Program-made: the position numbers and the translations under genes
Notes under the pieces: model-generated
Databases searched by the model: none
Told to the model about the DNA's origin: nothing
Seen by the model: only the letters and a program-made list of their open reading frames with translations
In this document: piece by piece, positions 42,358 to 59,212 of the stretch
How the letters are laid out: each line of letters starts with the position of its first letter
How positions within the stretch are numbered: the stretch's first letter is position 1
Source: an uncultured bacterium
Lineage (GTDB): Bacteria > Planctomycetota > Uabimicrobiia > Uabimicrobiales > JABWCH01
Assembly (NCBI GenBank): GCA_938003875.1
Contig: CALKWO010000084.1
Coordinates: 4,128 to 68,127 of the forward strand
DNA length: 64,000 nt
Reading direction: 5' to 3'

Positions 42358-42469
42358 AATTTTTTCCTTCACTTTAGAAAGTTTTTATACTTTATTTATT
42401 GTAAAAGGAAAAACAAAAATTTTCTAAAATGTATTTTTTAAAATCTGTAACTCATTTTTTTATATTGAG

Positions 42470-43603
42470 TTATTGAGTATTATTAGAGCGAACCTTTTGA
42501 CCAGCACTTATTAGACGATATTGTTGACCCCATGAATCTGTCAAATAGGGCCCAGTTCCATTGGTTCCAGTCAATAAACTGCGGTTTTGTAAATATCTTA
42601 ATGCATTTGGCCATGTTGTGTTTGGAACTATTTTAGGCGTATAGCTAGATTGAGAATGGTAATAGTCAAGAGCTTCATTGATGGCTTCAATTTCTGTCAG
42701 AGTTACCTCTCTTTGGATATCAGAGACATAAACATTCACTATAATATCATCTCCTTGAGCGGTAGTGTGGATAACAGAAGTCTGATGCACTTTATCCGAA
42801 CCAGCACTTTGGATTCTCAGTACTGTATTGGGGTAAGTAGTATCAGGGGTCACTCTATAGCGTGTTCGCCATTTATCATAAAGTACTGTGTTGTCTTCTG
42901 TAGTTTTAGGAAGAAGCGAAGACATGATATAAGGGCCATTCCATCCTGTAATGCCTGGATTTTGATATAAATATAATAAATTTCTTTCAGGCGGAGTAAC
43001 TCCTGTTGTAGGAGGCCACTGGCCTATATCTCGGTAGTAAGAACGTACAGCATTAGCAATTTCTTTCATACTGTTTGTTACTACATCTTCTTGCTCGACA
43101 ATGGTAAGATCCCCTACATACACCTGTCTTACAATATCATCACCTTGAGCAGTCATCTGGTTAGTATTAGTTTGAAATGTTTTATCTCTGCCAGCACTCT
43201 GTATTCCCAAGATATAGTTGTTGGATGATGTATCGGGTACTGCTCTGTAAGCAGTTCTCCATTTATCATAAAGAATAGTATTGTCTGCTGCATCTGTAGA
43301 AAGAAAATTCGATGAAATATAAGGTCCTCTCCAGCCAGGAATTGCCCCCCCTAGAGTTCTATCATATAAATATCTTAAATTTTTTTGTGGAGCAGTAACT
43401 CCAGTGGTTGGTGGCCATTGCCCAACATCTCGATAATAAGAACGCACGCCCTCGGCAATTGCGTCCATATTATCCATGGTTACTCTCTCTCTTTCGTTCT
43501 CTAGTATTTGCATCCCAGCAGGCACCAAAGTACCCGCAACTATAGCCATAACAGAAAGCACCACAACCATTTCAATTAAAGTAAAACCTTTTTGGTGTCG
43601 CAT
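42470..43603 (-). CDS. Large type IV pilin / pseudopilin with about three tandem GspG-like modules (paralog 1)
   Basis: MRHQKG|FTLIEMVVVLSVMAIVAG. Same modular repeat pattern as its neighbour. Strong GGAGGAG RBS. Confidence 0.88.
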   Translation of the reverse strand: MRHQKGFTLIEMVVVLSVMAIVAGTLVPAGMQILENERERVTMDNMDAIAEGVRSYYRDVGQWPPTTGVTAPQKNLRYLYDRTLGGAIPGWRGPYISSNFLSTDAADNTILYDKWRTAYRAVPDTSSNNYILGIQSAGRDKTFQTNTNQMTAQGDDIVRQVYVGDLTIVEQEDVVTNSMKEIANAVRSYYRDIGQWPPTTGVTPPERNLLYLYQNPGITGWNGPYIMSSLLPKTTEDNTVLYDKWRTRYRVTPDTTYPNTVLRIQSAGSDKVHQTSVIHTTAQGDDIIVNVYVSDIQREVTLTEIEAINEALDYYHSQSSYTPKIVPNTTWPNALRYLQNRSLLTGTNGTGPYLTDSWGQQYRLISAGQKVRSNNTQ

Positions 43604-43626: not shown

Positions 43627-44847
43627 TTATTTTTTCCCAACGATTTTCAAAAGATCGTAGATTGGCATCAATGTTCCCATGATGATAAAAAGCACGATTC
43701 CACCAGCACCAAAAATGATCAGGTTTTCTGTAATCTGTAAGAATCGCTTGATAGAATTGGGAATTTCCTGGTCATAGAAAATACATACCTTTTGCAAGCT
43801 TTCATCCAGCTTACCTGCTTCATCTCCTACTTTTACCATGGTAACGACAAGAGAAGGAAAAACTTCTGTGGCTTTCATGGCAACGGAAAACCTTTCTCCT
43901 TCCTGGATGGCTTTGGAGACTTGCTGTATTTTTTTCTTGAGATAATGGTTGGAAAGCACTTCTTCGCAATAGCCAAGGGAATCGCTGACATCCACACCTG
44001 ATTTTTGCAGTGAAGCCAGTGTGCTGCAAAATGCAGAGGCATTGTCTTTGATGATTAATGGACCAAAAAGTGGTAGATTCAGCAACCATTTATCCGTTGT
44101 CAGGCGCATTCCTGGATTTCTGCGAGAAATAATAATCATAAATACGCCAGCAATGGCTAATACAATAAGAATCAAAGCATTGTTGATCAGGAAGTTGCTG
44201 GCCCCCTGGATGACCCTTGTAGGGAAAGGAAGGAGAACGCCTGCATCACTATATACCTGGACGATCTTGGGCAACAGATAAAGCAGCAAAACCAAAATCA
44301 GACAAAAAACGGCAAACGATAGCGTTACAGGATAGATCATAGCACTGACCAATCTGCCTTTTGTCTCTTCCCTTCTTTCGATAAAACGAATCAAGCTATC
44401 CAATGCTGTATCGAGATTACCTGTGGCTTCGCCAACGCGAATCAATGCTATATAAATTTTGGGGAATACTTTAGGATACGCAGCCAGGGCATCGGAAAGA
44501 GAGCTTCCATTCTTGAGTGCCATGCAAACATTGTCCAGTACCTGGGCAAAATAAGGATTGGATGTTTCACCCTTTAAATCCTCCAGCCCAGAGATCAAGG
44601 GAACACCAGCAGAGTACAGCGTCTTTAGATGATGGGTGAAGGGTAGAACATCTTTCATCTTCACTGTGCCTGTTATCTCTGCTTTTTTGGGCGCGTCTGT
44701 AGATTTAGCAACAGCGTATTTAACCAATGTGAGATTCTGTGCTTTGACTTTGGACAAAAGATCGGCTATGGATTCCGCCTCCATAGTGCTGTTGATTTCA
44801 TCGCCTTTGTTGTTTCTGGCTTTATAAGAATACATTGTTTTTGCCAT
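43627..44847 (-). CDS. Type II secretion / type IV pilus platform protein (GspF/PilC family)
   Basis: 406 aa, two T2SSF-like halves each followed by TM helices. Lies between the ATPase and the pilins. Confidence 0.88.
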   Translation of the reverse strand: MAKTMYSYKARNNKGDEINSTMEAESIADLLSKVKAQNLTLVKYAVAKSTDAPKKAEITGTVKMKDVLPFTHHLKTLYSAGVPLISGLEDLKGETSNPYFAQVLDNVCMALKNGSSLSDALAAYPKVFPKIYIALIRVGEATGNLDTALDSLIRFIERREETKGRLVSAMIYPVTLSFAVFCLILVLLLYLLPKIVQVYSDAGVLLPFPTRVIQGASNFLINNALILIVLAIAGVFMIIISRRNPGMRLTTDKWLLNLPLFGPLIIKDNASAFCSTLASLQKSGVDVSDSLGYCEEVLSNHYLKKKIQQVSKAIQEGERFSVAMKATEVFPSLVVTMVKVGDEAGKLDESLQKVCIFYDQEIPNSIKRFLQITENLIIFGAGGIVLFIIMGTLMPIYDLLKIVGKK

Positions 44848-44895
44848 CGTACGATCCTTTTATTGATATTTCACAATGAATTGACAGCCTTAAAA

Positions 44896-46599
44896 TTAAT
44901 GCTCTGGTAAAACTCTCATGGCTTCCAGTATTGTTGTGGTTCCATCCAATACTTTTGCTCTTGCATCTTGTTTGAAGAATGTCATTCCTTTTGCAATACA
45001 GAATTTTTTCAGTTCGATTTCATCTACTTTCTGGAGCATGAGACTACGAACATCGTCATCGGGCATGAAAAGCTCATAGATAGCCCTTCTTCCTCTATAC
45101 CCATTGCCTTTGCATTTTTTACAGCCAACCTGTTTGTAAAGTTTGAGTTGCTGCTCTGGTGGATACCCCAGCCATTCATTTTCTTGCGGAGTGGACATAT
45201 AGGACTCTTTGCAATAAGGGCAAAGTGCACGAGCCAGACGCTGGGCAAGAACGCCATTTAAAATGGAAGTGAGCATAAAAAGATCAATGTCCATATAGAG
45301 AAGACGCGGAATAGCACCAATAGCCGTGTTAGTATGAAGTGTGCTAAGGACAAGATGCCCTGTCTGCGCTGCATGAACAGCCATCTCTGCTGTTTCTTTA
45401 TCTCGAATTTCTCCCACGAGAATAACATTAGGGTCATGGCGTAAGAATGCTCTCAAACCCGTTGCAAAGGTATACCCGATAGAGTGGTTTACCTGGGATT
45501 GACGAATAAAGGGAAGCTGATATTCTACAGGGTCTTCGATAGTGACGATGTTTTTTTCAATCGCGTTCAGGCTCTTAAGACAAGAGTAAAGACTGGTGGA
45601 CTTTCCTGAACCTGTTGGCCCAGTTACAAGAAATAGCCCAAAATTTTTAGAAATGATGTTTTCTATATTTTTGAGCATCTCTCGGTTAAAGCCTATGGAG
45701 CGTAAACTGAAAAGTTTATTCTTTTCGAGAATACGAATGACGATGTTTTCCCCATGCGTAATCGGCATGGTAGAAACACGAAGATCAATGTCTATTTTAT
45801 CTTGCTTAAAGCTGATTTTTCCATCCTGTGGCAATCTGCGTTCGGAAATGTTCAACTTTGCCATGAGCTTAATACGGGAAATGATACTGTTTTGCAATTC
45901 TGTAGGAATCGAAGGCCCAGAACATAGAATACCATCTACTCTGTATCTCATCTGAACATGGCTGCCCAGTGGGTTGATATGAATATCGCTCGCCTTCCAC
46001 GCAGCACCCAAAGCAAGGAGCTGGTCTACCAGAGTTTGAACAGGTAAGCTGGATGCATCCGTATCCGTAGTTCCTTCCAGCTCTTTAAGGCATCTCTGGA
46101 TTGTTTCCTGGATGCTTTCATCCAAAGCTTCTTTTTTGGTTTTGTCAAAATAATAACCGTCTATTGCTTTGAGTACCTCTTCTTCTGAAACGGAAACGCA
46201 TTTTACGATAAGACTTTCGTCGGTATTTCGAATCAGATCGTTGATAGCATCCATAGCAACGATATCATAAGGATTAGACAAACCAACGGTCAGTTCGCCT
46301 TCCTGTATGTAAAGAGGTATACATTTATATTTGACGACAAACTCAGGCGGAAACAATTTTATAACTTCAGGGGCAATTTCAATGCCCTCAAGAGTGGGAA
46401 TATGTTCTATATCCAGATCCAGACAGAGCAAGCTTGTCAGAGTCTCTTCCGTAATAAAGCCTCTGTTTACGAGAATTTTTCCAAGAGATTCGTGCGTCTG
46501 CTTTTGCTCCGCCAGGGCTACGTCAATCTGTTGTTGTGTAACACAGCGCAAAGCAATAAGATTATCAACCAATTTGGTCATTTTTGTTGAAATTGCCAT
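44896..46599 (-). CDS. Type II secretion / type IV pilus assembly ATPase (GspE/PilB family)
   Basis: N-terminal GSPII_E_N-like domain. Walker A GPTGSGKST. Tetracysteine CPYC…CKKCKGNGYRGR. His box GHLVLSTLHTN. Confidence 0.92.
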   Translation of the reverse strand: MAISTKMTKLVDNLIALRCVTQQQIDVALAEQKQTHESLGKILVNRGFITEETLTSLLCLDLDIEHIPTLEGIEIAPEVIKLFPPEFVVKYKCIPLYIQEGELTVGLSNPYDIVAMDAINDLIRNTDESLIVKCVSVSEEEVLKAIDGYYFDKTKKEALDESIQETIQRCLKELEGTTDTDASSLPVQTLVDQLLALGAAWKASDIHINPLGSHVQMRYRVDGILCSGPSIPTELQNSIISRIKLMAKLNISERRLPQDGKISFKQDKIDIDLRVSTMPITHGENIVIRILEKNKLFSLRSIGFNREMLKNIENIISKNFGLFLVTGPTGSGKSTSLYSCLKSLNAIEKNIVTIEDPVEYQLPFIRQSQVNHSIGYTFATGLRAFLRHDPNVILVGEIRDKETAEMAVHAAQTGHLVLSTLHTNTAIGAIPRLLYMDIDLFMLTSILNGVLAQRLARALCPYCKESYMSTPQENEWLGYPPEQQLKLYKQVGCKKCKGNGYRGRRAIYELFMPDDDVRSLMLQKVDEIELKKFCIAKGMTFFKQDARAKVLDGTTTILEAMRVLPEH

Positions 46600-46814: not shown

Positions 46815-47528
46815 ATGGAAAGAATAAATGCATTTTTAAGCACTGCACCTGCCCTGATTTTATATCAGGGAGATTTGGAAAAAGCCAGACAAAAGGGTAC
46901 GATTCTTTTTTATCATGGTTTGGGAGCGTGCAAAGAATCTCAGGAAAAAGAAATTGTAAGCCTTGCACAGCATGGTTTTCTGACGGTTGCCCTGGACAAT
47001 ATAGGGCATGGGCAAAGAAAGTACAAAGATTTTGAAAAAAAATTTTCGATGAACAATCCTGCTCTGGAATACGACTTTACAAAAGCCGTACAGGAAACAG
47101 CCAAGGAAACGCCTGATGTAATACATGCTCTCTTGGAAAGAGGCCTGGCTCAAGCAGGCAAAATAGGAATATGCGGAATTTCTATGGGAGGCTACATTGT
47201 ATATTCTGCTCTTTTAAACAAGTGTGGTATACAGGCAGGTGTTTCGATTCTGGGGTCGCCTACATGGAAAATCCAGAATACAGAAAGCCCTCACCACTTT
47301 CCAGAGCGTTTTTTTCCAGTGGCTTTTCTGGCTATGAATGCAGGATCGGACAGAAGCGTTCCGCCCAAATTCGCAAGGGAATTCCACGAAAGACTCAAGC
47401 CTTTTTACAAAGCCTCCCCTGGACGGCTTTCTTACAAAGAATACCCAGGAGCCGACCATTTTATGCCAGAAAAAGACTGGAATGATTTGTGGGTGAGAAC
47501 GCTCGAATGGTTTGATTCTTTTTTATAA
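46815..47528 (+). CDS. Alpha/beta hydrolase (dienelactone hydrolase / S9-like)
   Basis: Nucleophile elbow GISMGG. C-terminal …PGADHF… histidine. ATG 46815 preferred over the TTG at 46800. Confidence 0.7.
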   Translation: MERINAFLSTAPALILYQGDLEKARQKGTILFYHGLGACKESQEKEIVSLAQHGFLTVALDNIGHGQRKYKDFEKKFSMNNPALEYDFTKAVQETAKETPDVIHALLERGLAQAGKIGICGISMGGYIVYSALLNKCGIQAGVSILGSPTWKIQNTESPHHFPERFFPVAFLAMNAGSDRSVPPKFAREFHERLKPFYKASPGRLSYKEYPGADHFMPEKDWNDLWVRTLEWFDSFL

Positions 47529-47543
47529 AACACTAGGGCGAAA

Positions 47544-48332
47544 TCAATTATCGGATTTATTCATTTCTCTCCAGGGAACCAAAATACTATAAAGCCTTTG
47601 CATTAAAAAATTGAAGCTGCTGCCTAAAAGAGAAATAACAACAAGTGTAGCATACAATTCTGCCAGATGCAATGTCTCCCAGGCGAACCATATCAGCGTT
47701 CCCAAACCATTTTTAGCAGAAATGATTTCTATTGCAATTGTATTGACAAGACTCATGTTAAGGGCAAGACGCACTCCGCTCAATGTTGAGGGCATGCTTG
47801 CGGGCAAGATCACACGGAGAAAAATATGATAATTGCCTGCGCCATAGCTGCGTGCAATTTCATAATAGTCTTTTGGGATTTGCATGACTCCACTCATGGT
47901 ATTGATAACCATAGGGAAAAAAGAGGCCAGGGCAATAGAAAATATTTTACTGGCCTCACCAATCCCTAAAATAGCCATAATTAAAGGAAGAAGGGCTATC
48001 TTAGGGATGGGATGTATGGCTGCAATGAAGGGGTCTATCATATTGCGAAAAAAGGAAGAATACCCCATTAATATACCCAAGATAAAACCTACATTGCATC
48101 CTATCAGAAAACCAAATAATAATCTCTGCAAAGTCGCCAATAGATGTATTGACAAGGTGCCATCCATGAAAAAGGAATATATTGTCTGTAAAATTTTACA
48201 AGGAGATGGGAAAAAAAAGGAAGAGATAATTCCATGGCGAGAAAAGAATTCCCAACTACTTAGCACAAGGAAAACAAACAGACAAGATATACATATTCCT
48301 TTTTGTGTATATTTTTTTTTCAAAATTTTCAT
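47544..48332 (-). CDS. ABC importer permease (SsuC/TauC/NrtB-type, BPD_transp_1)
   Basis: 6-TM protein with an EAA-loop-like ARSYGAGNYHIFLRVILPASMP. Confidence 0.85.
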   Translation of the reverse strand: MKILKKKYTQKGICISCLFVFLVLSSWEFFSRHGIISSFFFPSPCKILQTIYSFFMDGTLSIHLLATLQRLLFGFLIGCNVGFILGILMGYSSFFRNMIDPFIAAIHPIPKIALLPLIMAILGIGEASKIFSIALASFFPMVINTMSGVMQIPKDYYEIARSYGAGNYHIFLRVILPASMPSTLSGVRLALNMSLVNTIAIEIISAKNGLGTLIWFAWETLHLAELYATLVVISLLGSSFNFLMQRLYSILVPWREMNKSDN

Positions 48333-48333
48333 C

Positions 48334-49149
48334 CTATATTTCGCAACTTCTAGTAACTTCTTTTTCTATCAATTTCCATATATGAAATTTTATTTCTGCT
48401 ATTGTTTTGAGATGTTCTCCAGAAAGTTGCCTGGGGCGTTCTAAGGGAATAGAAATTTCACAAAGAATTTTTCCTGGTCGGCTGCTCATGACTAAAATTT
48501 TGTCTGAAAGGAAAATAGCTTCTTCGATATCATGTGTCACATAAATTACAGACTTCTGGTATCTCTCCCATATATAAAGTAGCCTGGCTTGTAAAATACG
48601 TTTGATTTGTGCGTCTACAGAAGCAAATGGTTCATCCATCAAAAGAACATAGGGGTCTGTCGCCAATGCTCGCAAAATAGCTACCTGCTGACGCATTCCT
48701 AGAGAAAGCTGATCGGGAAAATACCTGGCAAAAGAATCTAAAGATATTTGTTTGAGAAAAGACATAGCTCTTTCCGATCTTTCCTTCTTGTTGACTCCTT
48801 GCATCTCCAGGCCAAAGGCAACATTCTCCAAAACGGTAAGCCAGGGAAATAAACCGTGATTTTGGAATACCATGGATGTAAGAGTTTTTTTCTCTGGCAT
48901 ATTGTACATTATCTCCCCTGAAGTAGGGCACAGGATTCCATCTATAATTTTTAAAATCGTTGTTTTTCCGCAGCCATTCGGCCCTACAATGCTTAAAAAT
49001 TCCTGAGATTGAAGCTGAAAAGAAATATCTTGCAAACAAAGCAATTCTTTGTCCTTAGCTTTGTAAGATTTAGAAATTTTATTGCATGTTATAAGCATAT
49101 TCGTTATTTTTGTTTCAGCCAAAATGTTATTGAATATATCAATACACAT
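48334..49149 (-). CDS. ABC importer ATP-binding protein (SsuB/TauB-like)
   Basis: GPNGCGKTT, LSLGMRQQVAILRAL, LLMDEPF. The true start may be MLITCNKISKSY at 49098. Confidence 0.88.
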   Translation of the reverse strand: MCIDIFNNILAETKITNMLITCNKISKSYKAKDKELLCLQDISFQLQSQEFLSIVGPNGCGKTTILKIIDGILCPTSGEIMYNMPEKKTLTSMVFQNHGLFPWLTVLENVAFGLEMQGVNKKERSERAMSFLKQISLDSFARYFPDQLSLGMRQQVAILRALATDPYVLLMDEPFASVDAQIKRILQARLLYIWERYQKSVIYVTHDIEEAIFLSDKILVMSSRPGKILCEISIPLERPRQLSGEHLKTIAEIKFHIWKLIEKEVTRSCEI

Positions 49150-49154
49150 ATTCG

Positions 49155-50195
49155 CTATTTTTTATCCAATTTTTCAAAAATTTGTTTTGCATACTCCACA
49201 AACCGAGAGTCATACAACTGGCTTTCTTCAATTCTTTCTTTGATGTAACCACGAGATAAACACCAATTCTGAAATTTTTTTAAAGATTCCAGATTTACTG
49301 TTCCATCTATCTTAATAAGAGGCCATCCCATTTTAAGGCATGTTTCCTTATCATGTTTTGTATGCTTCATCATGATTTCCACGTTTCGATCCGTTTTGCC
49401 TTGCATGTATTGTCTGACACCTTTGAGATAGGCAACCATGAATTTTTTTCCCAATTCTGGTTCTCTACGAAGCAAACGTTCTCCATACATTATATACCCA
49501 AATTCAAAATCAGGTATGATTTCTTCTGTAGTGAATCGCAAATCAAAATTGCCTCTTTTCGAGAGAAGAGTAAGCAGAGGCTCTCCCAGGCTTACAAAAT
49601 CAATAGAGCCATTGATAAGGGCTTCTGAAGCCATATTATCTGGCATACGATCACTTTCTATATCTTTTATTGTTAGACCTGCCTTTTGTAAACAGCAATC
49701 AATATGGTATTCTTCATAGCTTCCCATGTCAATGTATGCCTTAAGACCTTTGAGCTTCTCTATAGGAAAAGGTTTATCAGGCTCTATCAGGTTTTTGCGG
49801 AATACAATCGCTTTTTGTATGGTTCCATCCTGGGATCTGGCAATGCCTTTGTTGGCGACAATACGAATGTCTACCTTTTGGGAAAAAATATTAAAAAAAC
49901 CTGCTCGGCTACCTCCTGCCCAGACATCAAGCTCTCCTTTCGCCAACAAAAAGAGAGCTTTTGGCCCCTGGTTGGCGTGGACGAATTCTATTTCCAACCC
50001 TTCCTGATCAAAGTATCCTTCTTCCAGGGCAATATGAATAGGGATGAAGCTGGGACGAGGCTGACATAGCAGCTTTAATTTGATTTTGGCTTCTGAAGGC
50101 TTTTTGGACTGAATTGTTTTTTCAGATTCTGAAGTATTGCAAGAGCATAGAATCATGAAAAAGACAATAAGCAAAAACAGCGATAGTTTTTTCAT
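49155..50195 (-). CDS. Periplasmic substrate-binding lipoprotein (NMT1/SsuA-like)
   Basis: Lipobox MILCSC. Size and pattern of the SsuA/NMT1 family. ATGA overlap with the upstream A-T-TE gene. Confidence 0.65.
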   Translation of the reverse strand: MKKLSLFLLIVFFMILCSCNTSESEKTIQSKKPSEAKIKLKLLCQPRPSFIPIHIALEEGYFDQEGLEIEFVHANQGPKALFLLAKGELDVWAGGSRAGFFNIFSQKVDIRIVANKGIARSQDGTIQKAIVFRKNLIEPDKPFPIEKLKGLKAYIDMGSYEEYHIDCCLQKAGLTIKDIESDRMPDNMASEALINGSIDFVSLGEPLLTLLSKRGNFDLRFTTEEIIPDFEFGYIMYGERLLRREPELGKKFMVAYLKGVRQYMQGKTDRNVEIMMKHTKHDKETCLKMGWPLIKIDGTVNLESLKKFQNWCLSRGYIKERIEESQLYDSRFVEYAKQIFEKLDKK

Positions 50196-52816
50196 ATTTT
50201 TTCTTCCTTCCTGTCGCGAGCCAGTGCCAACTCACGTTTAAAATGTTCTGCAAGAATTTGAACATTAGGCTCCTGCTCAATGCCTTTATGGTCTCCTGGT
50301 ATGGTATAGACCTGTTTTTTTTCTATCCTATCGAACCATAAATTTCTGGAGCCATGTGTATAATCTATGAGAGAATCCCTGCCTACAAAAAACACAATTT
50401 TGTCTTTGTATTCTTTTGGTATATAATTTTGTGCCGCAAGGGCGACGAAATGTTTGATTTTTTCGTAGTGTTCTTTTCTAGGACGATTTAGAGAACGGGC
50501 TTTTTTTCTTACCAGAAATCTTTTGATATATTCTTTGAACTCGGAAAATGTCATGCCATATACTGCCTTGCTATGCCTGCGGATGCTTCTTAGTATATTG
50601 ATAGTCCATGATCGTAAGATTTTAAGCTTTTTAAATATGCCTCGTTTTATTTTGGTGATGCCTTGTGGCTTTTCAGGATAATACATTTCCATCAAAGCAA
50701 GAAAAGGAATTTTTTCTCCCTGAGCAGACAATTGCTGTGCCATTTCAAAGGTAATTATGCCACCCAGACACGTGCCACAAAAGAAATAAGGGCCTTGAGG
50801 TTGTATTTCTTTAATTTCCTGGATAAAAGTGGAGGCAACGTCCTCCAGAGAAAAATCTTTTGTAAATCGTTCTCCTTGCAGATGAAGTCCATAGCAAGGC
50901 TGGTCTTGTCCAAGATAGCGTATAAGGTGTACAAAAAAATTGGGGTTTAGTGTTGTGATAAAGAAAATAGGAGGTTGTGTCCCTTTTGTCTGAAGAGGAA
51001 GAATGCAAGAAATGTCTTCCTGGCTTTTCCCTTGGGCGATAGCATAGCCAAGAAGCTCGATAGTAGGCAGTTGCCAAAAACGAGATAAAGAAAAATTTTT
51101 GCCAAAATATTTTTCTATCTTTGCCAGAACCTGCTGGGCCAGAAGAGAAGTTCCTCCTAATTCAAAAAAATTATCATGAACTCCGATAGGATATATTTCT
51201 AAAACTTCCTGCCAGATAATAGCTAGTTTTTCTTCCATTTCATTTCTGGGAGGCTCATATCCGGTCAGCATTTCATGCCTTGTATGAGAAGGCTCTGGTA
51301 AGACAGAACGGTCAATTTTACCATGAACATTTAGAGGCATCGCCTTTAAAAATACAAAGACAGCAGGGATCATATAGTAAGGTAACTTTTCTTCTAGTTT
51401 TTTCCTTATTTCTGTGGAATTTAGAGAATATTTTTCTTTGAGGACAATGTAGGCCACAAGACGATTGTTATTGTTGGCTTCTTTTCTTGCAATAACAATC
51501 GCCTGGCTTATACAGTCAAGAGAATATAGGATATTTTCTACTTCAGCAAGCTCAACCCGAAATCCAGCGATTTTCACCATATTGTCTTTTCTGCCTGAAT
51601 GAAGTATAGAGCCATCGGGCAGGCGTTTCCCCATATCTCCTGTACGATAGATAATCGTCCCATCTTCACAAAACTGGAAAGTCTTTTTGGTAAGCTCTTC
51701 ATTGCGCCAATATCCATGAGCAAGGTAGCGGCTTCGGATAACGATTTCGCCTTCATCGCTTTCTATAGGAGGATCCTGGGTAGTATCGAGAAGAGAAATT
51801 TCTTTGTCCTTGGCCTTAACAGTGAGTGGTATAGGTCCATCGCTCAATTCCGTGGTTCTTGTAATGTAGTTGCACATGATTGTATTGGTTTCTGAAGAAG
51901 AAAGGTTATGTCTCAAAATACAATCACGGCTGACATGATTCCAAAACCTCATTATATCGCTTTTGTACAGAGCCTCTCCGCCTACTCCCATTAAACGCAG
52001 ATGAGGAAAAAAATCTTTTGGCTTCAGCACATCCAAAAAGGTTCTGAAAAAAGAAGACATCATGCTCGTCATGGTAATCTCTTCTTTTTTCAGATGTTCA
52101 GCAAGGCTTTGAAAGCTCTCAGCAGCAGTATTATAAAGAAAGAGCGTAGCCCCATTAAAAAGAGAATTCATAATCTGGGATCGAGAGGAACCAAAGCTGG
52201 AAGAAGTCAAGAGGCTAATACGCTCATGAAAGTTGCCGGAATAAATATTGTTTTTCGCCATAGCAGCATATATAGCAGTAAGGTGCGTGTTGATCGCTCC
52301 TTTGGGAATTCCTGTAGAGCCAGAGGTATAGTAAACACAGGCAAATCGATTGGGTTCTATTTTCAGGCCAGGGTTTTCTGAAGACAGACTTTCCGAAATT
52401 TCTTCTATACAAACCAGAGGAACTTTATTTCCTATGATTTCTCGTACTTTAGAGCGATAATGATAATCTGTTATGACAAGACTGGCCTGAGAATTTTGCA
52501 ACATCATGGAAATCCTATCAGCAGGGTATTGTGGATCAACAGGTATATAGAATTTTCCTGCCTTGAGGGAGCCCAAAAGGGCTTCTATAAAAGCTATATC
52601 TTTGTCCAATAAAAGAGCAACTGCCTCTTCTTTTTCTCCTATTTTGGATAGAATACCATGGGCCAGGCGGTTGCTCTTTTCGTTGAGATGGCTATAACTC
52701 AATTCCGCCAGAGCAGATTTTACCGCAATACGATTTGGATATTTTTGCACCTGCTCTTCAAAGCATTCTGGTATAGATCGTTCTATGTTATAGCTAAAAT
52801 TTATATTTTTTTGCAT
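50192..52816 (-). CDS. Stand-alone NRPS-like enzyme: adenylation - thiolation (PCP) - thioesterase, no condensation domain
   Basis: A-domain cores: LSYSHLN, LKAGKFYIPVD, YYTSGSTGIPKG, FGSS, NLSSSET, GEIVIRSRYLAHGYW, YRTGDMG, GRKDNMVKIAGFRVELAEVE, LPYYMIP, HGKIDR. PCP motif FFELGGTSLLA. TE motif GTCLGG with a late GDH. Confidence 0.88.
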   Translation of the reverse strand: MQKNINFSYNIERSIPECFEEQVQKYPNRIAVKSALAELSYSHLNEKSNRLAHGILSKIGEKEEAVALLLDKDIAFIEALLGSLKAGKFYIPVDPQYPADRISMMLQNSQASLVITDYHYRSKVREIIGNKVPLVCIEEISESLSSENPGLKIEPNRFACVYYTSGSTGIPKGAINTHLTAIYAAMAKNNIYSGNFHERISLLTSSSFGSSRSQIMNSLFNGATLFLYNTAAESFQSLAEHLKKEEITMTSMMSSFFRTFLDVLKPKDFFPHLRLMGVGGEALYKSDIMRFWNHVSRDCILRHNLSSSETNTIMCNYITRTTELSDGPIPLTVKAKDKEISLLDTTQDPPIESDEGEIVIRSRYLAHGYWRNEELTKKTFQFCEDGTIIYRTGDMGKRLPDGSILHSGRKDNMVKIAGFRVELAEVENILYSLDCISQAIVIARKEANNNNRLVAYIVLKEKYSLNSTEIRKKLEEKLPYYMIPAVFVFLKAMPLNVHGKIDRSVLPEPSHTRHEMLTGYEPPRNEMEEKLAIIWQEVLEIYPIGVHDNFFELGGTSLLAQQVLAKIEKYFGKNFSLSRFWQLPTIELLGYAIAQGKSQEDISCILPLQTKGTQPPIFFITTLNPNFFVHLIRYLGQDQPCYGLHLQGERFTKDFSLEDVASTFIQEIKEIQPQGPYFFCGTCLGGIITFEMAQQLSAQGEKIPFLALMEMYYPEKPQGITKIKRGIFKKLKILRSWTINILRSIRRHSKAVYGMTFSEFKEYIKRFLVRKKARSLNRPRKEHYEKIKHFVALAAQNYIPKEYKDKIVFFVGRDSLIDYTHGSRNLWFDRIEKKQVYTIPGDHKGIEQEPNVQILAEHFKRELALARDRKEEKI

Positions 52817-52819
52817 AGT

Positions 52820-54262
52820 TTAGAACCGAACTTGAAAGCGTGTCATGAAAATATGGGCATCTGTTTTTTCGTTATTTTTTTCGTTATGCAGCATAGAATA
52901 AATATAGTCAAACATAATGCGAAGATGAGAATTGGGATACCAGTTCAAACCCACGATGATATTATCCATACGTCCACCGCGTATTTCATCATTCAGATCA
53001 AGCTTGGAATAGCAAACTGCCATTTCCCAAGCACCATATCCGCCTTCCAGAAAACTTTTTTCAGGCTTTATATCAAGAAAACGGCCTCTTTCTTTATCGT
53101 AGTTGCGGTGTTCTCCTGTAAGAAAGTATGTAGCATACACATAATAGCCCCAGAAACGATCATTGTCTTTATCAGCAGAGCTTTCATAGTTGATAAAAGA
53201 GCAAATCAACTCGCTCTGTATGGACAGAGGGCCAATAACACATGCACCTTCTAAACCAAGAAGATGGTTATCTTCTACATTTCTTAGTATACCTGTGTCT
53301 ACGAAATAAGGAGTCATGCGAGCTTCAGGCTTTGCTCTATATCGGGCTTCATCATTAATAGGATTGCGATAGCTATAGCCTATACCCAAATGAACAAGGG
53401 TTTCCCCCTTATTTTCATAATAAGGCAATCCTGCTATTCTCGCTGTAAAAGCATAGGACCCGCTATCTCCTTCCACTTTAGGGGGATTGTTATTAGGTGT
53501 GTCACGGAAAAATCCAAAGCTAAAAGATATGCGTTCTTCTGCCAGATTCCCGAAATAGGCAATGCCTAAATTTCGGTTAGGAGAAAGTATTTCCACAGAG
53601 TTTCTTTCCATAAAGGTAAGCCAGGGGGCAGGTCTTTGCGTTTCCAGGCAGAAAGGCTCTTTGAAATGCCCTAGTATCAATTTTCCAGAAAGAGGAAGTC
53701 CTGAAATTCCCATATAAACATCAAAAAAAGCTGCTGTTCCACCTGCAAATGATAAGTCTATTTTGTAAAAGAAATGCTTACATACCGTGCCTTCTAAGGT
53801 AGGTCTTACAGAACGAAATTCCATAGAGTCTTCAATCGGCCCCTGGTTTTCATGAATCGTTCTATCTTCATGCCCAAAGATAAAATCTACAGCCACCCTA
53901 CCTCCTACAGTCATGGTAAATTTTTTATCTTCTGTTTCAAAAGAAAATCGCCCTTTCCAAAAACTTTCCACAGGAATTTTCTTGGGGTCTTTTTTCGTTT
54001 CCAGAATATTGGAAACTTCTTCTTTTATCATTTGTCTTAAGCTGTCTTTATCCTGGATTGGCTCCTGTTGTTCCTGATTTTTTTCAGGAAGAGAACCTTT
54101 TTCTTTATCCTTTTCCAGATCTATCACTCTCTTTTGGAGAGATTCTAAAAGCTTTTTCATGCTTTCGATTTCTTGCTGTTGCTTTAAGATGATTTCCTTA
54201 TCAGACTCTTGAGAAAATAAAAAGAAAGGAAATAAAAAGATACATAAAAATAGCAATTTCAT
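52820..54262 (-). CDS. Porin of the phosphate-selective OprO/OprP-like family with an N-terminal coiled coil
   Basis: Signal peptide MKLLFLCIFLFPFFLFSQ (ATG 54262, AAGGA RBS). Coiled coil QQQEIESMKKLLESLQKRVIDLEKD. Beta-strand alternation ending …MTRFQVRF. Confidence 0.65.
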   Translation of the reverse strand: MKLLFLCIFLFPFFLFSQESDKEIILKQQQEIESMKKLLESLQKRVIDLEKDKEKGSLPEKNQEQQEPIQDKDSLRQMIKEEVSNILETKKDPKKIPVESFWKGRFSFETEDKKFTMTVGGRVAVDFIFGHEDRTIHENQGPIEDSMEFRSVRPTLEGTVCKHFFYKIDLSFAGGTAAFFDVYMGISGLPLSGKLILGHFKEPFCLETQRPAPWLTFMERNSVEILSPNRNLGIAYFGNLAEERISFSFGFFRDTPNNNPPKVEGDSGSYAFTARIAGLPYYENKGETLVHLGIGYSYRNPINDEARYRAKPEARMTPYFVDTGILRNVEDNHLLGLEGACVIGPLSIQSELICSFINYESSADKDNDRFWGYYVYATYFLTGEHRNYDKERGRFLDIKPEKSFLEGGYGAWEMAVCYSKLDLNDEIRGGRMDNIIVGLNWYPNSHLRIMFDYIYSMLHNEKNNEKTDAHIFMTRFQVRF

Positions 54263-54314
54263 AAAATTCCTTTTTTGATATTTTTTTGTCTTTACTAACA
54301 TCAATATTCATAAT

Positions 54315-54358
54315 CTAAAAAAAGTGAGGCTACTACTTGACTTCAGCAATAGCCTCAC
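54315..54358 (-). terminator. Rho-independent terminator after the lipoprotein gene
   Basis: Minus strand: gtgaggcta…tagcctcac stem followed by a T7 run. About 50 nt downstream of the stop at 54407. Confidence 0.7.
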
Positions 54359-54406
54359 TTTGTAGCCGCTACGTTTTCGATCTAATAGCAGCCTGTAAAA
54401 AAAGCT

Positions 54407-54922
54407 TTAATTTTTTGTCTGAAATGTCTTTAAATACGATGCCAGGGTAACTTCCTTTGTATTGCTTTGGTTCAAAGGAAGCTTATGGCATTCTACAATC
54501 TGGTTTTCATAATAGAATCGCCATTCCTGGGAATTTTTGGCACTATAGAGTAGCTCTGAGTTTTTTTCCAGTTTATTGCTTCCAGAAAGGGTTCTCAGGG
54601 AAATGGTTTTGCTTCCCTCTTTGCTCAAAAACTGGATTTTGGCTTTTTGAGAAAATTCCGCTATTCGAGCATTGTCTTTTTCTTTACCCTCGCTATATCC
54701 TGGAGGAAGATAGATGTATCCACTGTCTATATCAATATAGAAAGCCACAACACCAGGGATGACAAAACAAAGGCATAAAAGAGCGTCCATAAGAACCACT
54801 TTGCTGTCCAGCTTTCCGCCAGATTGGCCTTTTCTTTCAGGATACCAGTAACTCCCACAGCCTGTGCTTATCGCAATTATCGAAAGGCATAAAAGAAGGC
54901 ATATTGCTTTGTTGAGATTCAT
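54407..54922 (-). CDS. Lipoprotein with an internal hydrophobic segment, unknown function
   Basis: Lipobox AISTGC. 171 aa. No family recognised. Confidence 0.55.
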   Translation of the reverse strand: MNLNKAICLLLCLSIIAISTGCGSYWYPERKGQSGGKLDSKVVLMDALLCLCFVIPGVVAFYIDIDSGYIYLPPGYSEGKEKDNARIAEFSQKAKIQFLSKEGSKTISLRTLSGSNKLEKNSELLYSAKNSQEWRFYYENQIVECHKLPLNQSNTKEVTLASYLKTFQTKN

Positions 54923-54945
54923 GTTTTACCCTTATCAAAAGATCA

Positions 54946-56223
54946 TTATGAAATAGAATTTTTTACTTCCCATGTTTTGGAAATCTGACGATAAATATAA
55001 ACAAACAAAAATCCTAAGAAAAATCCTGCAATATGGGCCCACCATCCAACATTCTTTTGTCCTGAAAGTTGGCCGACAAATTGTACGATAACCCAAAAAC
55101 CCAGATAAAAATACACAGGAATTTTAAAGGGATAAGGAATGATGATGGTCTGGTATAAGGCTGCTTTGGGGAAAAAATATAGATATGCACCCATCACTCC
55201 AGCGACAGCTCCACTGGCTCCTACCAGAGGGGTAGCAGGAATACCCATTTTTACCATAGCGATGACTTGCACCAGGGCAGAAAGAATACCACAGGCAAGA
55301 TAAAAAAGGATAAAGCCAAAATGGCCAAGGCGATCCTCTACATTGTCTCCAAATATCCAGAGGAAATACATATTTCCAATCAAATGCAACCATCCACCAT
55401 GAATAAAAGCATAACTTACTAAAGTAAAAAGGCTCATGCCCCCTAAAATTTTCTCAGGAACAGCCCCATAGGTACGGAAAAAATCGCTAAGATGCGCCAT
55501 ACTGAAAGTAGAGAGTATCCATTGAATCAAAAAATTGATGACAATAAAAGAAACAACTACGTATGGAAAACGCCTTCTAGGTGGGTTATAGGCTTCTACA
55601 GGAAAGCCTGTTAAAGCAGTGAAGGCCCAGAGCCCTGCTGTGACTTCAGCAGCATAGGTTCCTTCGTCCAGCTCTCTTTCTTCTGCCACTTCATCTCTTT
55701 CTTCCATATCCAGTGTTATTGGTTGTATCTTTTTGATAACAACAGGCATGGGCTTTTCTGTTTTAGGGACAGGATAGAGACGGAAAGGGTGAATTTTTCC
55801 TATAGTTTCCTGGTTAGCAGCATCTTTTCTCTTGGCTGCAACTTGTTCGCGTATCAGTTGTTTTGTTTTAGGAAATTCATTTTTATCCAGCCATACACCC
55901 TGGCAATGCTTGCACTGGTCTATGGTAAGCCCCTTGTCGTTTTTAAAGGTTTTGGCTTCCATGTGGCATTTGCATTCAGGGCAATTCAAATCGCTTTCTT
56001 GTTGCAGAAAAATATCTTTAGAAAAGTTCATCAACTCGCGATTTTTTTGCAAGGAAAGAAGTTTGGCCAGCGTTTCTCCATAATACCATGTCCCTCTACA
56101 TTGGGAGCAGGTGGCAAGATGAATGTTGGAGAATGCTTCTTTTTTTAAATCGCATTGGCATCGTGGACATAGCATGGTTTCCAAAGGGAATCCCTCCTGA
56201 TAAAAAAATGTTTTTACTCCCAT
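54946..56223 (-). CDS. Rhomboid-family intramembrane serine protease with two N-terminal zinc-ribbon modules
   Basis: CPRCQCDL…CSQCRGTWY and CPECKCHM…CKHCQGVWLD. Rhomboid core HGGWLHLIGNM, GASGAVAGVMGAY (catalytic Ser) and WAHIAGF (His). Confidence 0.85.
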   Translation of the reverse strand: MGVKTFFYQEGFPLETMLCPRCQCDLKKEAFSNIHLATCSQCRGTWYYGETLAKLLSLQKNRELMNFSKDIFLQQESDLNCPECKCHMEAKTFKNDKGLTIDQCKHCQGVWLDKNEFPKTKQLIREQVAAKRKDAANQETIGKIHPFRLYPVPKTEKPMPVVIKKIQPITLDMEERDEVAEERELDEGTYAAEVTAGLWAFTALTGFPVEAYNPPRRRFPYVVVSFIVINFLIQWILSTFSMAHLSDFFRTYGAVPEKILGGMSLFTLVSYAFIHGGWLHLIGNMYFLWIFGDNVEDRLGHFGFILFYLACGILSALVQVIAMVKMGIPATPLVGASGAVAGVMGAYLYFFPKAALYQTIIIPYPFKIPVYFYLGFWVIVQFVGQLSGQKNVGWWAHIAGFFLGFLFVYIYRQISKTWEVKNSIS

Positions 56224-57185: not shown

Positions 57186-58157
57186 TTATCCATGAGGTGT
57201 TAAGGTAGGCCAGAAAGAGTAGGGGCTTGCAATTTTTCCCCGAAATAAAAGCTCTGAAAGAATTTCTGTTATAGAAATTTTTGTTTGCTCTTGTATTTCT
57301 TTAAAAGAAGGAATAGGATCAATGCCTAAAAAAATGCAATTGTCCTGATGATCTAATCCTAATTCTATACTGGCATAAAGAAGCCCTGTTATTTTCATCA
57401 GGTTCTGAATTTTTTTCAATATTTCTGCCGGGCATTCAAATGTTTTGAATAGAGGTGTTTCATAGTCGTCTTTATAGAAGACTTCCACGGGAACAGGGAA
57501 ATTCCCTATCATCAAGACACAGAAAAATTTTTTGAAAACGAAGGCTTCCTGAAATAGACAAGGTGCTAATACAAGATTTTCTGTTTCCTCCAAATGCTCT
57601 TTTAATAGCCTGGCTAAACTCGCTCCCAAAGGAATCAGAGGACGGTAGTTGACTTTTGTATTATATTTTTCCCAAAAGGATTTCAAGGAATCAGGATGAG
57701 ATGTAATCAATGTTTCTGGTATTTTGAATCCGGCTATTTTAGCTGCCTGCAACTGGTATATGGAATTCAGTGCGATTTCCTGTCTTTCTGGCTGGTTGAC
57801 CCAAAGACAATCTTGGCTAGTATAGCTTATGGCATTTAAAAATTGGCAACATTCTGTATAGGCAAAGGCAACAAAATCCTTGCTTTGCAATTTATCAGAA
57901 ATTTTTGGTATTCCTGGTGCCCACCACCATACGCTACGCAGCTTCTCAAAAGAAATGCACTTTTTTTCTTCAGAAGCAAGCAATACCAACTTGTTTCCAC
58001 TGTTCGATACATAAAATTCGCATGTGTAATTTTTAGGAAATTCAGCAATATCTAAAATCAAGACATTCTGTGTATGCTTATCCTGGATATATGCTTGAAT
58101 TTTTTGAGCATGCTCATTTTCTTCTGATGCGATAATAAGAATTTCTGGTGTAAGCAT
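57186..58157 (-). CDS. Possible MvdC/MvdD-like ATP-grasp protein with a divergent active-site region (tentative)
   Basis: By-eye colinearity with microviridin-type ATP-grasp ligases as I recall them: ILIIAS…DIAEFP…, …LRSVWWW…, …QLQAAKIAGFKIPETLITS…, …LFQEAF…, …YASIELGL…IFLGIDP. The usual …LE(I/V)N… metal-binding motif reads FLGIDP here. Confidence 0.35.
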   Translation of the reverse strand: MLTPEILIIASEENEHAQKIQAYIQDKHTQNVLILDIAEFPKNYTCEFYVSNSGNKLVLLASEEKKCISFEKLRSVWWWAPGIPKISDKLQSKDFVAFAYTECCQFLNAISYTSQDCLWVNQPERQEIALNSIYQLQAAKIAGFKIPETLITSHPDSLKSFWEKYNTKVNYRPLIPLGASLARLLKEHLEETENLVLAPCLFQEAFVFKKFFCVLMIGNFPVPVEVFYKDDYETPLFKTFECPAEILKKIQNLMKITGLLYASIELGLDHQDNCIFLGIDPIPSFKEIQEQTKISITEILSELLFRGKIASPYSFWPTLTPHG

Positions 58158-58507: not shown

Positions 58508-59212
58508 ATGTTTGAAGACTATGAAGAAATTTTGACTACAGAAGAATTAGCGCAAATTCTACGGCTCAATGAAAGAACAGTCATCAAGCTGGCAAAAGAA
58601 GGTCAGCTACCTGCTGCTAAGATAGCCAGCCAGTTTCGCTTTAGCAAAGAAAAAATACTGGAATGGTTAGACCTGCAAATGGATAAATACTCTGATGATC
58701 TTTTGTCCGATATGGAAAAGGGAATCTTAAATAAAGCCATTCCTATCCATAGTCTTTTGAAGCCTGTCCATATTAAAATGGAATTGCAATCCGAAACAAA
58801 AGAAGATGTTTTGAAGGAATTGGTAGATGTTGCCCACTCTACTGGCCTGGTAAAAAATCCTGAAGAGCTTTTAAAATGTATCAAAGCCAGAGAAGAACTT
58901 TGTTCTACGGCAGTAGAAAACCAGATTGCATTTCCTCATCCTCGCACAACCAGTTGGACTATTGTCAAAAATTGGCTGATTGTGATTGGAATTTCTAAAA
59001 AAGGAATCGAGTTTGGTGCAGCAGATGAAAAGCCTGTAAGAATTTTTGTGATGATGTCTATTCCTTTGCTACCCTTGCATTTACAATTGCTTTCTCGTTT
59101 GGCTCGAATTTTCAAAGATGATACTATTAAGCAAAAAATCTATGAAGCAAAGACGCCAGAGGAAATAATTACTATTATAGAAAAAAAAGAAGCAGAGTGG
59201 CAAACCAGCTAG
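58508..59212 (+). CDS. HTH (excisionase/MerR-like HTH_17) fused to a PTS EIIA-2 (PtsN-like) domain
   Basis: ILTTEELAQILRLNERTVIKLAKEGQLPAAKI…RFSKEKILEWL is the HTH. The EIIA-2 pattern has the IAFPHPR histidine and …VRIFVMMSIP…LHLQLLSRLARIF. Confidence 0.75.
   Translation: MFEDYEEILTTEELAQILRLNERTVIKLAKEGQLPAAKIASQFRFSKEKILEWLDLQMDKYSDDLLSDMEKGILNKAIPIHSLLKPVHIKMELQSETKEDVLKELVDVAHSTGLVKNPEELLKCIKAREELCSTAVENQIAFPHPRTTSWTIVKNWLIVIGISKKGIEFGAADEKPVRIFVMMSIPLLPLHLQLLSRLARIFKDDTIKQKIYEAKTPEEIITIIEKKEAEWQTS

Follow-up and report, generated by a model that had tools for sequence, protein, structure and literature searches.

A condensation-less A-T-TE enzyme encoded between an outer membrane porin and an ABC importer: a candidate uptake-and-activation operon in Planctomycetota

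In Escherichia coli, FadL-FadD vectorial acylation and Aas/LplT salvage take up an exogenous molecule and carry it from carboxylate to thioester to transfer, and in FadL-FadD an outer membrane channel is tied both genetically and functionally to the activating enzyme. The CouPSTU/CouB, Hba and Bad clusters of Rhodopseudomonas palustris place an importer dependent on a solute-binding protein (SBP) beside the ligase for the imported acid. Siderophore clusters such as Ent/Fep combine a nonribosomal peptide synthetase (NRPS)-type enzyme with an outer membrane channel, an SBP and an ATP-binding cassette (ABC) importer, and TdiA, AtrA/GreA and RalA are built of adenylation, thiolation and thioesterase (TE) domains without a condensation domain (A-T-TE). 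The five genes described here resemble each of these in part. They lie in a 64-kb stretch of DNA from an uncultured planctomycete (contig CALKWO010000084.1; hereafter, the window) and encode a porin of the OprO/OprP family, an A-T-TE enzyme, a lipoprotein SBP, and the ATPase and permease of an ABC importer (Table 1). On balance, and with modest confidence, we read them as one unit for the uptake and activation of an imported, probably anionic, non-amino carboxylic acid.

The original prediction, made from the sequence of the window alone, had described five tightly spaced minus-strand genes. Reading the junctions gave the same spacing: TAA-ACT-ATG between the porin and A-T-TE genes (3 nt), an ATGA overlap of stop and start between the A-T-TE and SBP genes (4 nt), TAG-CGAAT-ATG between the SBP and ATPase genes (5 nt), and TAG-G-ATG between the ATPase and permease genes (1 nt). 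This spacing suggests that all five are co-transcribed. Pfam likewise returned each predicted domain and found no condensation domain in the A-T-TE protein (no match to PF00668). The prediction had also remarked on the lack of MbtH and of a phosphopantetheinyl transferase (PPTase), and for the window this was upheld: a search of all frames found neither an MbtH signature nor the HHxxxDG motif of condensation domains, and tblastn found no PPTase, no second SBP and no PaaK-like gene. The same five-gene order occurs at 98% identity in a second locus (L004). In a third, from a 'Ca. Brocadiae' metagenome-assembled genome (MAG; L001), the porin, A-T-TE and SBP genes (63-73% identity) run to the contig end behind unrelated upstream genes.

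Table 1. Coordinates in the window of the five genes, the enzyme domains and the 5' boundary
Feature	Position	Strand	Size and basis
Intrinsic terminator of upstream gene (54407-54922)	54361-54321	minus	17-pair stem, then T run
Leader/promoter region, short, A+T-rich, AAGGA ribosome-binding site before porin ATG	54263-54320	minus	sequence reading
OprO/OprP-family porin	52820-54262	minus	480 aa; Porin_O_P 6.4e-49
A-T-TE enzyme	50192-52816	minus	874 aa; Pfam AMP-binding, AMP-binding_C, PP-binding, Thioesterase
Adenylation domain, aa 1-515	51272-52816	minus	Pfam and core motifs A3, A7, A8, A10
Carrier (thiolation) domain, aa 516-600	51017-51271	minus	PP-binding 6.4e-13, 49 bits
Thioesterase domain, aa 601-874 and stop codon	50192-51016	minus	Thioesterase 2.5e-15 (Pfam); fold model
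SBP lipoprotein, NMT1/SsuA fold	49155-50195	minus	346 aa; NMT1 1.9e-12
ABC ATPase, NitT/TauT-type importer	48334-49149	minus	271 aa; ABC_tran 3.5e-31
Permease (BPD_transp_1)	47544-48332	minus	262 aa; Pfam 3.1e-25

Conservation of the neighborhood had been set beforehand as a test of the original prediction. With the SBP as the seed, homologues at ~35% identity again adjoined A-T-containing enzymes. A scan for the SBP signature, with one genome per species, gave 79 loci, which were analyzed with the loci of earlier relatives by tblastn and clustering; each scan took at most 80 loci, and open reading frames (ORFs) were called by a simple in-house procedure. An adenylate-forming enzyme was present in 57 of the 74 SBP-seeded loci with a called SBP ORF. 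Such an enzyme was the immediate same-strand neighbor of 51 of 99 SBP genes (34 A-T-x proteins and 17 members of a 530-aa family described below), lay within 4 kb of 68 of 85, and did so for 29 of the 33 nearest SBP relatives (33-39% identity). Gene orders varied: SBP-ATPase-permease-A-T-TE, ATPase-permease-SBP-A-T-TE and SBP-A-T-TE-ATPase-permease were all found. In five loci (L052, L040, L031, L044 and L039), tandem pairs of SBP and A-T-TE genes shared one ATPase and permease; L052 has three such pairs, with one further SBP gene where the contig ends. The order in L051, from Brocadiaceae, is SBP-SBP-ATPase-permease-A-T-TE-PPTase, and a PPTase (PF01648) also follows the A-T-TE gene in L052, L058, L059, L034 and L063. 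Because several related loci have a PPTase beside the A-T-TE gene, its absence is a property of the window and not of the system.

The hosts of the SBP-seeded loci were mainly Chloroflexota (Anaerolineae) and overall belonged mostly to anaerobic phyla. Other bacterial hosts were Acidimicrobiia, Synergistota, Spirochaetota, Syntrophaceae and other deltaproteobacterial lineages, Binatia, Methylomirabilis and a Brocadiaceae MAG; the archaeal hosts were Methanoregula, Methanomicrobiales and Methanoperedens. Culturable hosts include Litorilinea aerophila (L056) and 'Ca. Chloroploca' (L048) and, for the variant with an ANL enzyme, Bacillus sp. 1P02SD (L066) and Massilia cavernae (L087). NRPS-like carrier chemistry is unusual in relatives of methanogens, and the loci from Methanoregula and Methanomicrobiales (L034, L063) hold, with the SBP/ABC genes, several AMP-binding genes of ~500 aa, an A-T-TE gene and a PPTase gene. 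A profile search of 1.84 billion representatives found 2,075 cluster representatives of the SBP subfamily at an E value of 1e-30 or below; hence, the family is large. We conclude that this SBP/ABC subfamily is linked to adenylate-forming enzymes across many phyla and that the linkage is conserved. The window holds each part of the cassette that we propose to call an 'SBP-paired adenylase': a motif-bearing SBP, an adjacent adenylate-forming enzyme, and an SsuBC-like ATPase and permease.

Could a generic sulfonate/nitrate-type importer and a porin simply flank an orphan NRPS-like gene by chance? The NMT1/SsuA transporter family is very common, and the NCBIfam matches of the window proteins are generic. 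However, the genes are translationally coupled, down to the 4-nt overlap, and the same linkage is seen in many phyla and in several gene orders. As a control, we used a metagenome scan with an A-T-TE profile of generic NRPS motif patterns. The loci retrieved were of the ordinary multimodular NRPS kind, not close relatives, and for that reason the scan served solely as a negative control; among the matches listed, none of the 80 NRPS loci had such an SBP or permease. Since the arrangement of the window recurs in L004 and L001 with different flanking genes, the adjacency is hardly accidental, and we regard a chance association as very improbable.

What might the enzyme activate? Its adenylation domain (AMP-binding, 1.8e-54, 185 bits, plus AMP-binding_C) has intact core motifs, read against the patterns of the A3 P-loop (YTSGSTGIPKG), A7 Y-x-T-G-D (YRTGD), A8 G-R-x-D-x-x-x-K-I-x-G (GRKDNMVKIAGFRVE) and the A10 lysine (Lys500, in GK500IDR). 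The A4 motif is F-G209-S-S in place of F-D-x-S, with Gly at the position of Asp235 (GrsA numbering). The Asp of this motif binds the alpha-amino group of amino-acid substrates. In the same alignments, C-A-T-TE relatives (~1,400 aa, Acidobacteriota) carry F-D-A-S, and the Asp is nearly always absent from A-T-TE and A-T relatives that lack a condensation domain. Because the A4 Asp is missing, an alpha-amino acid is very unlikely to be the substrate. The score against the amino-acid adenylation family TIGR01733 was 269.9, under the cut-off of 317.4, and the best non-NRPS match in NCBIfam was DltA. Read by motif against the GrsA motifs, the pocket is, we presume, approximately G-S-S-S-G-G-(N/L)-T-I-K, and this approximate reading suggests a roomy, polar, Ser-rich pocket lined by small residues. 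In the carrier domain, the predicted phosphopantetheine attachment site is Ser557 of a GGTS motif, in which G554, G555 and S557 are invariant in the alignment. Four proteins of ~1,470 aa (P0069, P0086, P0087 and P0099) have a thiamine-diphosphate enzyme (PF02775/PF02776/PF00205) fused to A-T-TE; their A4 motif, too, lacks the Asp.

TdiA, AtrA/GreA and RalA likewise have an adenylation domain without the alpha-amino-binding Asp, activate a non-amino acid, and use a TE whose chemistry goes beyond simple hydrolysis. Unlike the window enzyme, they dimerize endogenous aryl-pyruvates by Claisen/Dieckmann chemistry and are not known to be linked to an importer. Their keto-acid code, V-A-(E/H)-F-S-G-G-A-C-K, shows no resemblance to the pocket of the window enzyme, whose TE nucleophile position is moreover a Cys.

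This residue, Cys683 in G-T-C-L-G, aligned with the catalytic Ser of solved TEs. Of the remaining triad positions, His843 is kept and Glu710 stands where Asp is usual. A Cys in the nucleophile position was found in relatives as well. The model of the domain (pLDDT 88) has an alpha/beta-hydrolase core and a lid of three long helices, ~126 residues with 32 Lys/Arg against 11 Asp/Glu and a net charge of +21; a strongly basic lid is common to most SBP-linked A-T-TEs. The closest solved folds were the TEs of AB3403, Pks13, a skyllamycin-type bifunctional TE, EntF and FASN. The Pks13 TE of Mycobacterium tuberculosis occupied structural neighbor ranks 2-27 (TM ~0.64) and shares the large helical lid; it differs in its Ser nucleophile, in sequence (16-19% identity), and in belonging to a giant polyketide synthase that handles mycolic acid precursors. 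The Pks13 TE transfers its acyl group to trehalose, so that transfer by a TE has a precedent. In the model, the positive charge of the lid could bind coenzyme A (CoA) or else a membrane or polymer of negative charge. Because the ATP would be wasted if the TE simply hydrolyzed the thioester, we favor transfer or cyclization as its activity. An acyl-enzyme on Cys, itself a thioester, would preserve the energy required to pass the acyl group to a thiol, for example CoA.

The Pks13-like fold and a sister architecture make a lipid or a sugar plausible as the acceptor. In L005 (9038-11908), L041, L048, L060 and L062, all from Chloroflexota, a C-terminal Lip_A_acyltrans domain (LpxL/PatA-like) replaces the TE behind A-T; the same SBP/ABC genes adjoin, and several sulfotransferases, GT4 enzymes and Wzm/Wzt exporters are encoded around them. 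These loci raise the alternative that the target of acylation by the A-T-TE is a membrane lipid, a glycolipid or a surface glycan, the TE acting as an acyltransferase in the manner of Dlt, Aas or Pks13, while the transporter supplies the acyl donor or acceptor. This explanation overlaps with uptake and activation and differs in committing the acyl group to a structural fate. A basic three-helix lid that could dock on an anionic membrane would suit it, as would the resemblance to Pks13 and DltA. So would a related A-T-TE encoded among glycosyltransferases and Wzy (L170). However, the charge of the lid would suit CoA binding equally, the A-T-TE has no membrane segment, and neither the window operon nor most four-gene cassettes have glycan or lipid genes nearby. 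Envelope decoration is hence, in our estimate, improbable.

Like its relatives, the SBP carries a signal peptide that closes with a Cys lipobox; it also has the conserved helix that marks the subfamily, FM(V/A)AYLKGVRQY..GKT.RN. Judged from its model (pLDDT 92), the fold is certainly of the NMT1/SsuA type. Structural comparison had been suggested as a route to the ligand and did not lead to one: the Foldseek neighbors were Thi5, TauA, SsuA, ThiY and related proteins at 12-19% identity. The ATPase and permease are 44-55% and 40-53% identical, respectively, to those of related loci. None of the five proteins scored above any NCBIfam family cut-off. The SBP reached 59.7 against the SsuA-family cut-off of 163.5; the best matches of the permease were SaoP, SsuC (143.9 versus 347) and TauC, and those of the ATPase were SaoA and TauB (207.6 versus 357), all below cut-off. 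The importer thus shares its SBP fold and its permease and ATPase families with SsuABC, TauABC and NrtABC (NitT/TauT). SsuABC and TauABC, in contrast, have SsuD/TauD-type oxygenases as partners, whereas the partner here is an adenylating enzyme, and Pfam found no such oxygenase in the operon or its flanks. Because the equivalog cut-offs were missed by wide margins, a sulfonate, taurine or nitrate label should not be used for this transporter.

The SBP partners comprise A-T-TE proteins with a Ser or Cys nucleophile, A-T proteins alone, the A-T-Lip_A_acyltrans proteins and a PaaK-like family of ~530 aa. Members of the latter had no Pfam or NCBIfam match; a profile of the family weakly matched PaaK phenylacetate-CoA ligases (4.7e-5, 1.9e-4), and the family looks like an undescribed group of adenylate-forming enzymes. 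Its genes lie directly upstream of SBP genes in L010, L015, L016, L020, L008, L023, L026, L032 and L049. Arrays are often formed: in the first three of these loci, repeated ligase-SBP pairs are followed by an ATPase and a permease only. One 857-aa protein, P0435, joins a PaaK-like part (1 to ~525), a hydrophobic/lipobox segment and an SBP (527-848) in an apparent fusion; it is either a real cytoplasm-membrane-exterior fusion of both partners or a read-through artifact. A more distant branch of the SBP family, from Proteobacteria and Bacillus, has as partners an ordinary acyl-CoA synthetase and an enoyl-CoA hydratase (crotonase), in one case fused. Specific catabolic names for these, such as feruloyl-CoA synthetase/hydratase, were set aside, since the matches were generic.

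The proteobacterial loci of this distant branch resemble the layout of CouPSTU/CouB. The window differs from CouPSTU/CouB, Hba and Bad, which have a Leu/Ile/Val-type rather than an NMT1/SsuA-type SBP and make a CoA thioester directly for the catabolic enzymes that follow; the window has a T-TE module and no downstream pathway. It also differs from Aas/LplT and FadL-FadD, which are not known to include an SBP-dependent ABC importer, rely on free acyl carrier protein or CoA as carrier, and use ANL-type ligases where the window has an NRPS module equipped with T and TE domains. Those systems act on fatty acids and lysolipids; the pocket of the window enzyme appears polar, Ser-rich and lined by small residues. 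A further locus, L171 (2328-10709), encodes in a row a TonB-dependent receptor, a DASS (Na_sulph_symp/CitMHS) symporter, a methyltransferase and a condensation-less A-T-TE 34% identical to that of the window. By analogy, it may represent the same uptake-plus-activation layout built from different transporters, and we count it in favor of that reading.

Because an importer is joined to a carboxylate-adenylating enzyme throughout the family, it is simplest to suppose that the ligase acts on the imported compound. The minimal cassettes, which have no exporter and no further enzyme, fit import followed by activation best. We therefore propose the following scheme. A small, probably anionic carboxylic acid without an alpha-amino group would pass the outer membrane through the OprO/P-type porin, be bound by the NMT1-type lipoprotein SBP and be moved into the cytoplasm by the SsuBC-like importer. 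There, the A-T-TE would adenylate the carboxylate and load it as a thioester on Ser557 of its own carrier domain. The Cys-TE with its basic helical lid would then hand the acyl group on, rather than simply hydrolyze it, to CoA or another thiol or to a hydroxyl or amine of a lipid or glycan, or would cyclize it. The anion-porin family, the SsuA/TauA-like SBP, the polar pocket and the layout of L171 together give a weak hint that the acid is polyanionic or otherwise polar. The original prediction had proposed activation of an imported acid. Its acid half fits an adenylation domain without the alpha-amino-binding Asp; import of that substrate is suggested by gene context, and the chemical class of the acid and the fate of its thioester are likewise matters of inference.

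Several points weigh against this scheme. The PPTase is missing from the window, and the neighbors of the SBP in the PDB, generic NMT1/SsuA/Thi5 folds at less than 20% identity, give no ligand. The linkage of the porin is limited to one lineage. A purely hydrolytic TE would turn the pathway into a futile cycle. Co-variation of SBP and adenylation domain, compared by mirror-tree at the level of paralogues, was weak (85 agreements in 149, with 69.7 expected). Condensation-less A-T-TE relatives also occur without an importer in glycan or other contexts (L003, where the relative is 40% identical and has no transporter; L169; L170). Loci in which an A-T protein stands beside a full C-A-T-TE module (L017, L037, L055 and L050/53/54) mean true assembly-line biosynthesis. 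Finally, an NRPS with an outer membrane channel, SBP and ABC importer is also the classical siderophore layout.

The last two points lead to the main alternative: that the A-T-TE builds a small product from an endogenous precursor, and that the SBP recognizes this product and not the substrate. Such a product, for example a cyclized or oligomerized acid, would be exported like a metallophore or other public good, bind a scarce metal or nutrient and return through the porin, SBP and importer. One-to-one SBP/enzyme pairs are expected under this model too, L171 pairs its related A-T-TE with a TonB-dependent receptor, and the PQQ/lanthanide-binding PqqT has the SBP fold (Foldseek ranks 42-46). However, neither the operon nor its flanks gave a Pfam match to an exporter, a TonB receptor, a FecCD-type permease or a Peripla_BP_2 SBP. 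Compared with Ent/Fep, the window has a porin for the TonB-dependent receptor and NMT1/BPD_transp_1 for Peripla_BP_2/FecCD, and it lacks a condensation domain, an exporter and Asp235. A single condensation-less module would have little biosynthetic scope. Moreover, cassettes of importer and ligase alone, including PaaK-like ligases with no carrier or release domain, leave no room for biosynthesis and export, and catabolic acyl-CoA synthetases with crotonase are SBP partners in distant branches. For these reasons, we consider production, export and reimport unlikely, if a little less so than envelope decoration.

How firmly does the porin belong to the uptake-and-activation unit? It matched Porin_O_P (PF07396) at 167.6 bits against a cut-off of 20.9, over profile positions 3-370 of 370. 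The mechanical ORF reaches a TTG at 54304; the most likely start is the ATG at 54262, behind an AAGGA site and ahead of a signal peptide. Residues ~20-100 form a Glu/Lys/Gln-rich, coiled-coil-like N-terminal extension (~80 residues) ahead of the barrel. The 926 relatives of the porin are mainly from Planctomycetota and Omnitrophota. The porin of L001 is 73% identical and stands in the same position, and a porin is tied to the cassette only in the window, L004 and L001. In L172, a homologue stands alone beside flagellar genes. In L173 (85-3917, Omnitrophota), a porin 38% identical to that of the window belongs to a phosphonate-type operon with an ABC ATPase and a fused Phosphonate-bd SBP::permease; Porin_O_P family members thus partner with ABC importers elsewhere, which we count in favor of uptake. 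As a clue to the substrate, these contexts are suggestive of anions only; no pst genes were found in the window. Judged from these comparisons, the porin appears to be a lineage-specific addition suited to a diderm host and outside the conserved core. Of the parts of the pathway drawn in the original prediction, the importer and the enzyme have a conserved linkage, and the porin is linked to them in those three loci.

More broadly, and only tentatively, we suggest that the operon is the diderm version of widespread 'scavenging synthetases', in which importer lipoprotein SBPs are paired one-to-one with cytoplasmic adenylating enzymes of the A-T-TE, A-T-acyltransferase or PaaK-like kind and each imported acid is caught as a thioester and then transferred to a cellular acceptor. 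We think this generalization possible, somewhat short of probable. If it is true, NRPS logic serves the salvage of nutrients or building blocks instead of the export of secondary metabolites, and arrays of pairs let a single transporter serve several substrate channels. There is nothing unfamiliar in the parts or in the general principle of import followed by activation; what appears to be new is that an NRPS-type module is used, that SBP and enzyme are paired in modular fashion, and that this pairing is so broad. That no described system has this composition, as first supposed, agreed with the NCBIfam results and with our literature searches, which had partial coverage and contained no description of the SBP-adenylase pairing, which argues weakly for novelty.

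Genome-mining tools count 'NRPS-like' genes without a condensation domain as orphan clusters for secondary metabolites. Should many of these genes prove to be the cytoplasmic half of an uptake system, a good part of the biosynthetic clusters predicted in Chloroflexota, Planctomycetota and other anaerobes would call for reinterpretation. SBP/enzyme pairs offer two independent handles, binding and adenylation, on one ligand and make substrate discovery testable in uncultured lineages. The Cys-thioesterase with its cationic lid may stand for an unexplored off-loading chemistry.

The 5' boundary of the unit is indicated by the terminator in Table 1, the sole strong terminator-like site in 47000-55200. 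Because it closes the upstream gene, the unit is predicted to begin at the porin. No consensus sigma-70 site stood out in the leader, and Rfam gave no match to a riboswitch or leader RNA in the operon region or in eight related loci. A Fur-box-like stretch noticed by eye in the leader was dismissed, as only ~11 of 19 positions matched in A+T-rich DNA.

At the other end, a convergent alpha/beta-hydrolase gene ends 15 nt past the permease stop. The flanking ORFs (type II secretion system [T2SS]/type IV pilus [T4P] genes, rhomboid, rubrerythrin and PTS-EIIA in Pfam) are unrelated to the operon. Among them, two unusually long proteins with a T2SS-G pseudopilin domain and an N-terminal methylation motif (375 and 377 aa; 41245-43603) adjoin GspE/GspF-like genes (43627-46599). 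A protein encoded at 58508-59212 fuses HTH_17 to a PTS EIIA_2 domain, and the opposite strand encodes, at 57186-58157, a protein of 323 aa that weakly matches MvdD pre-ATP-grasp.

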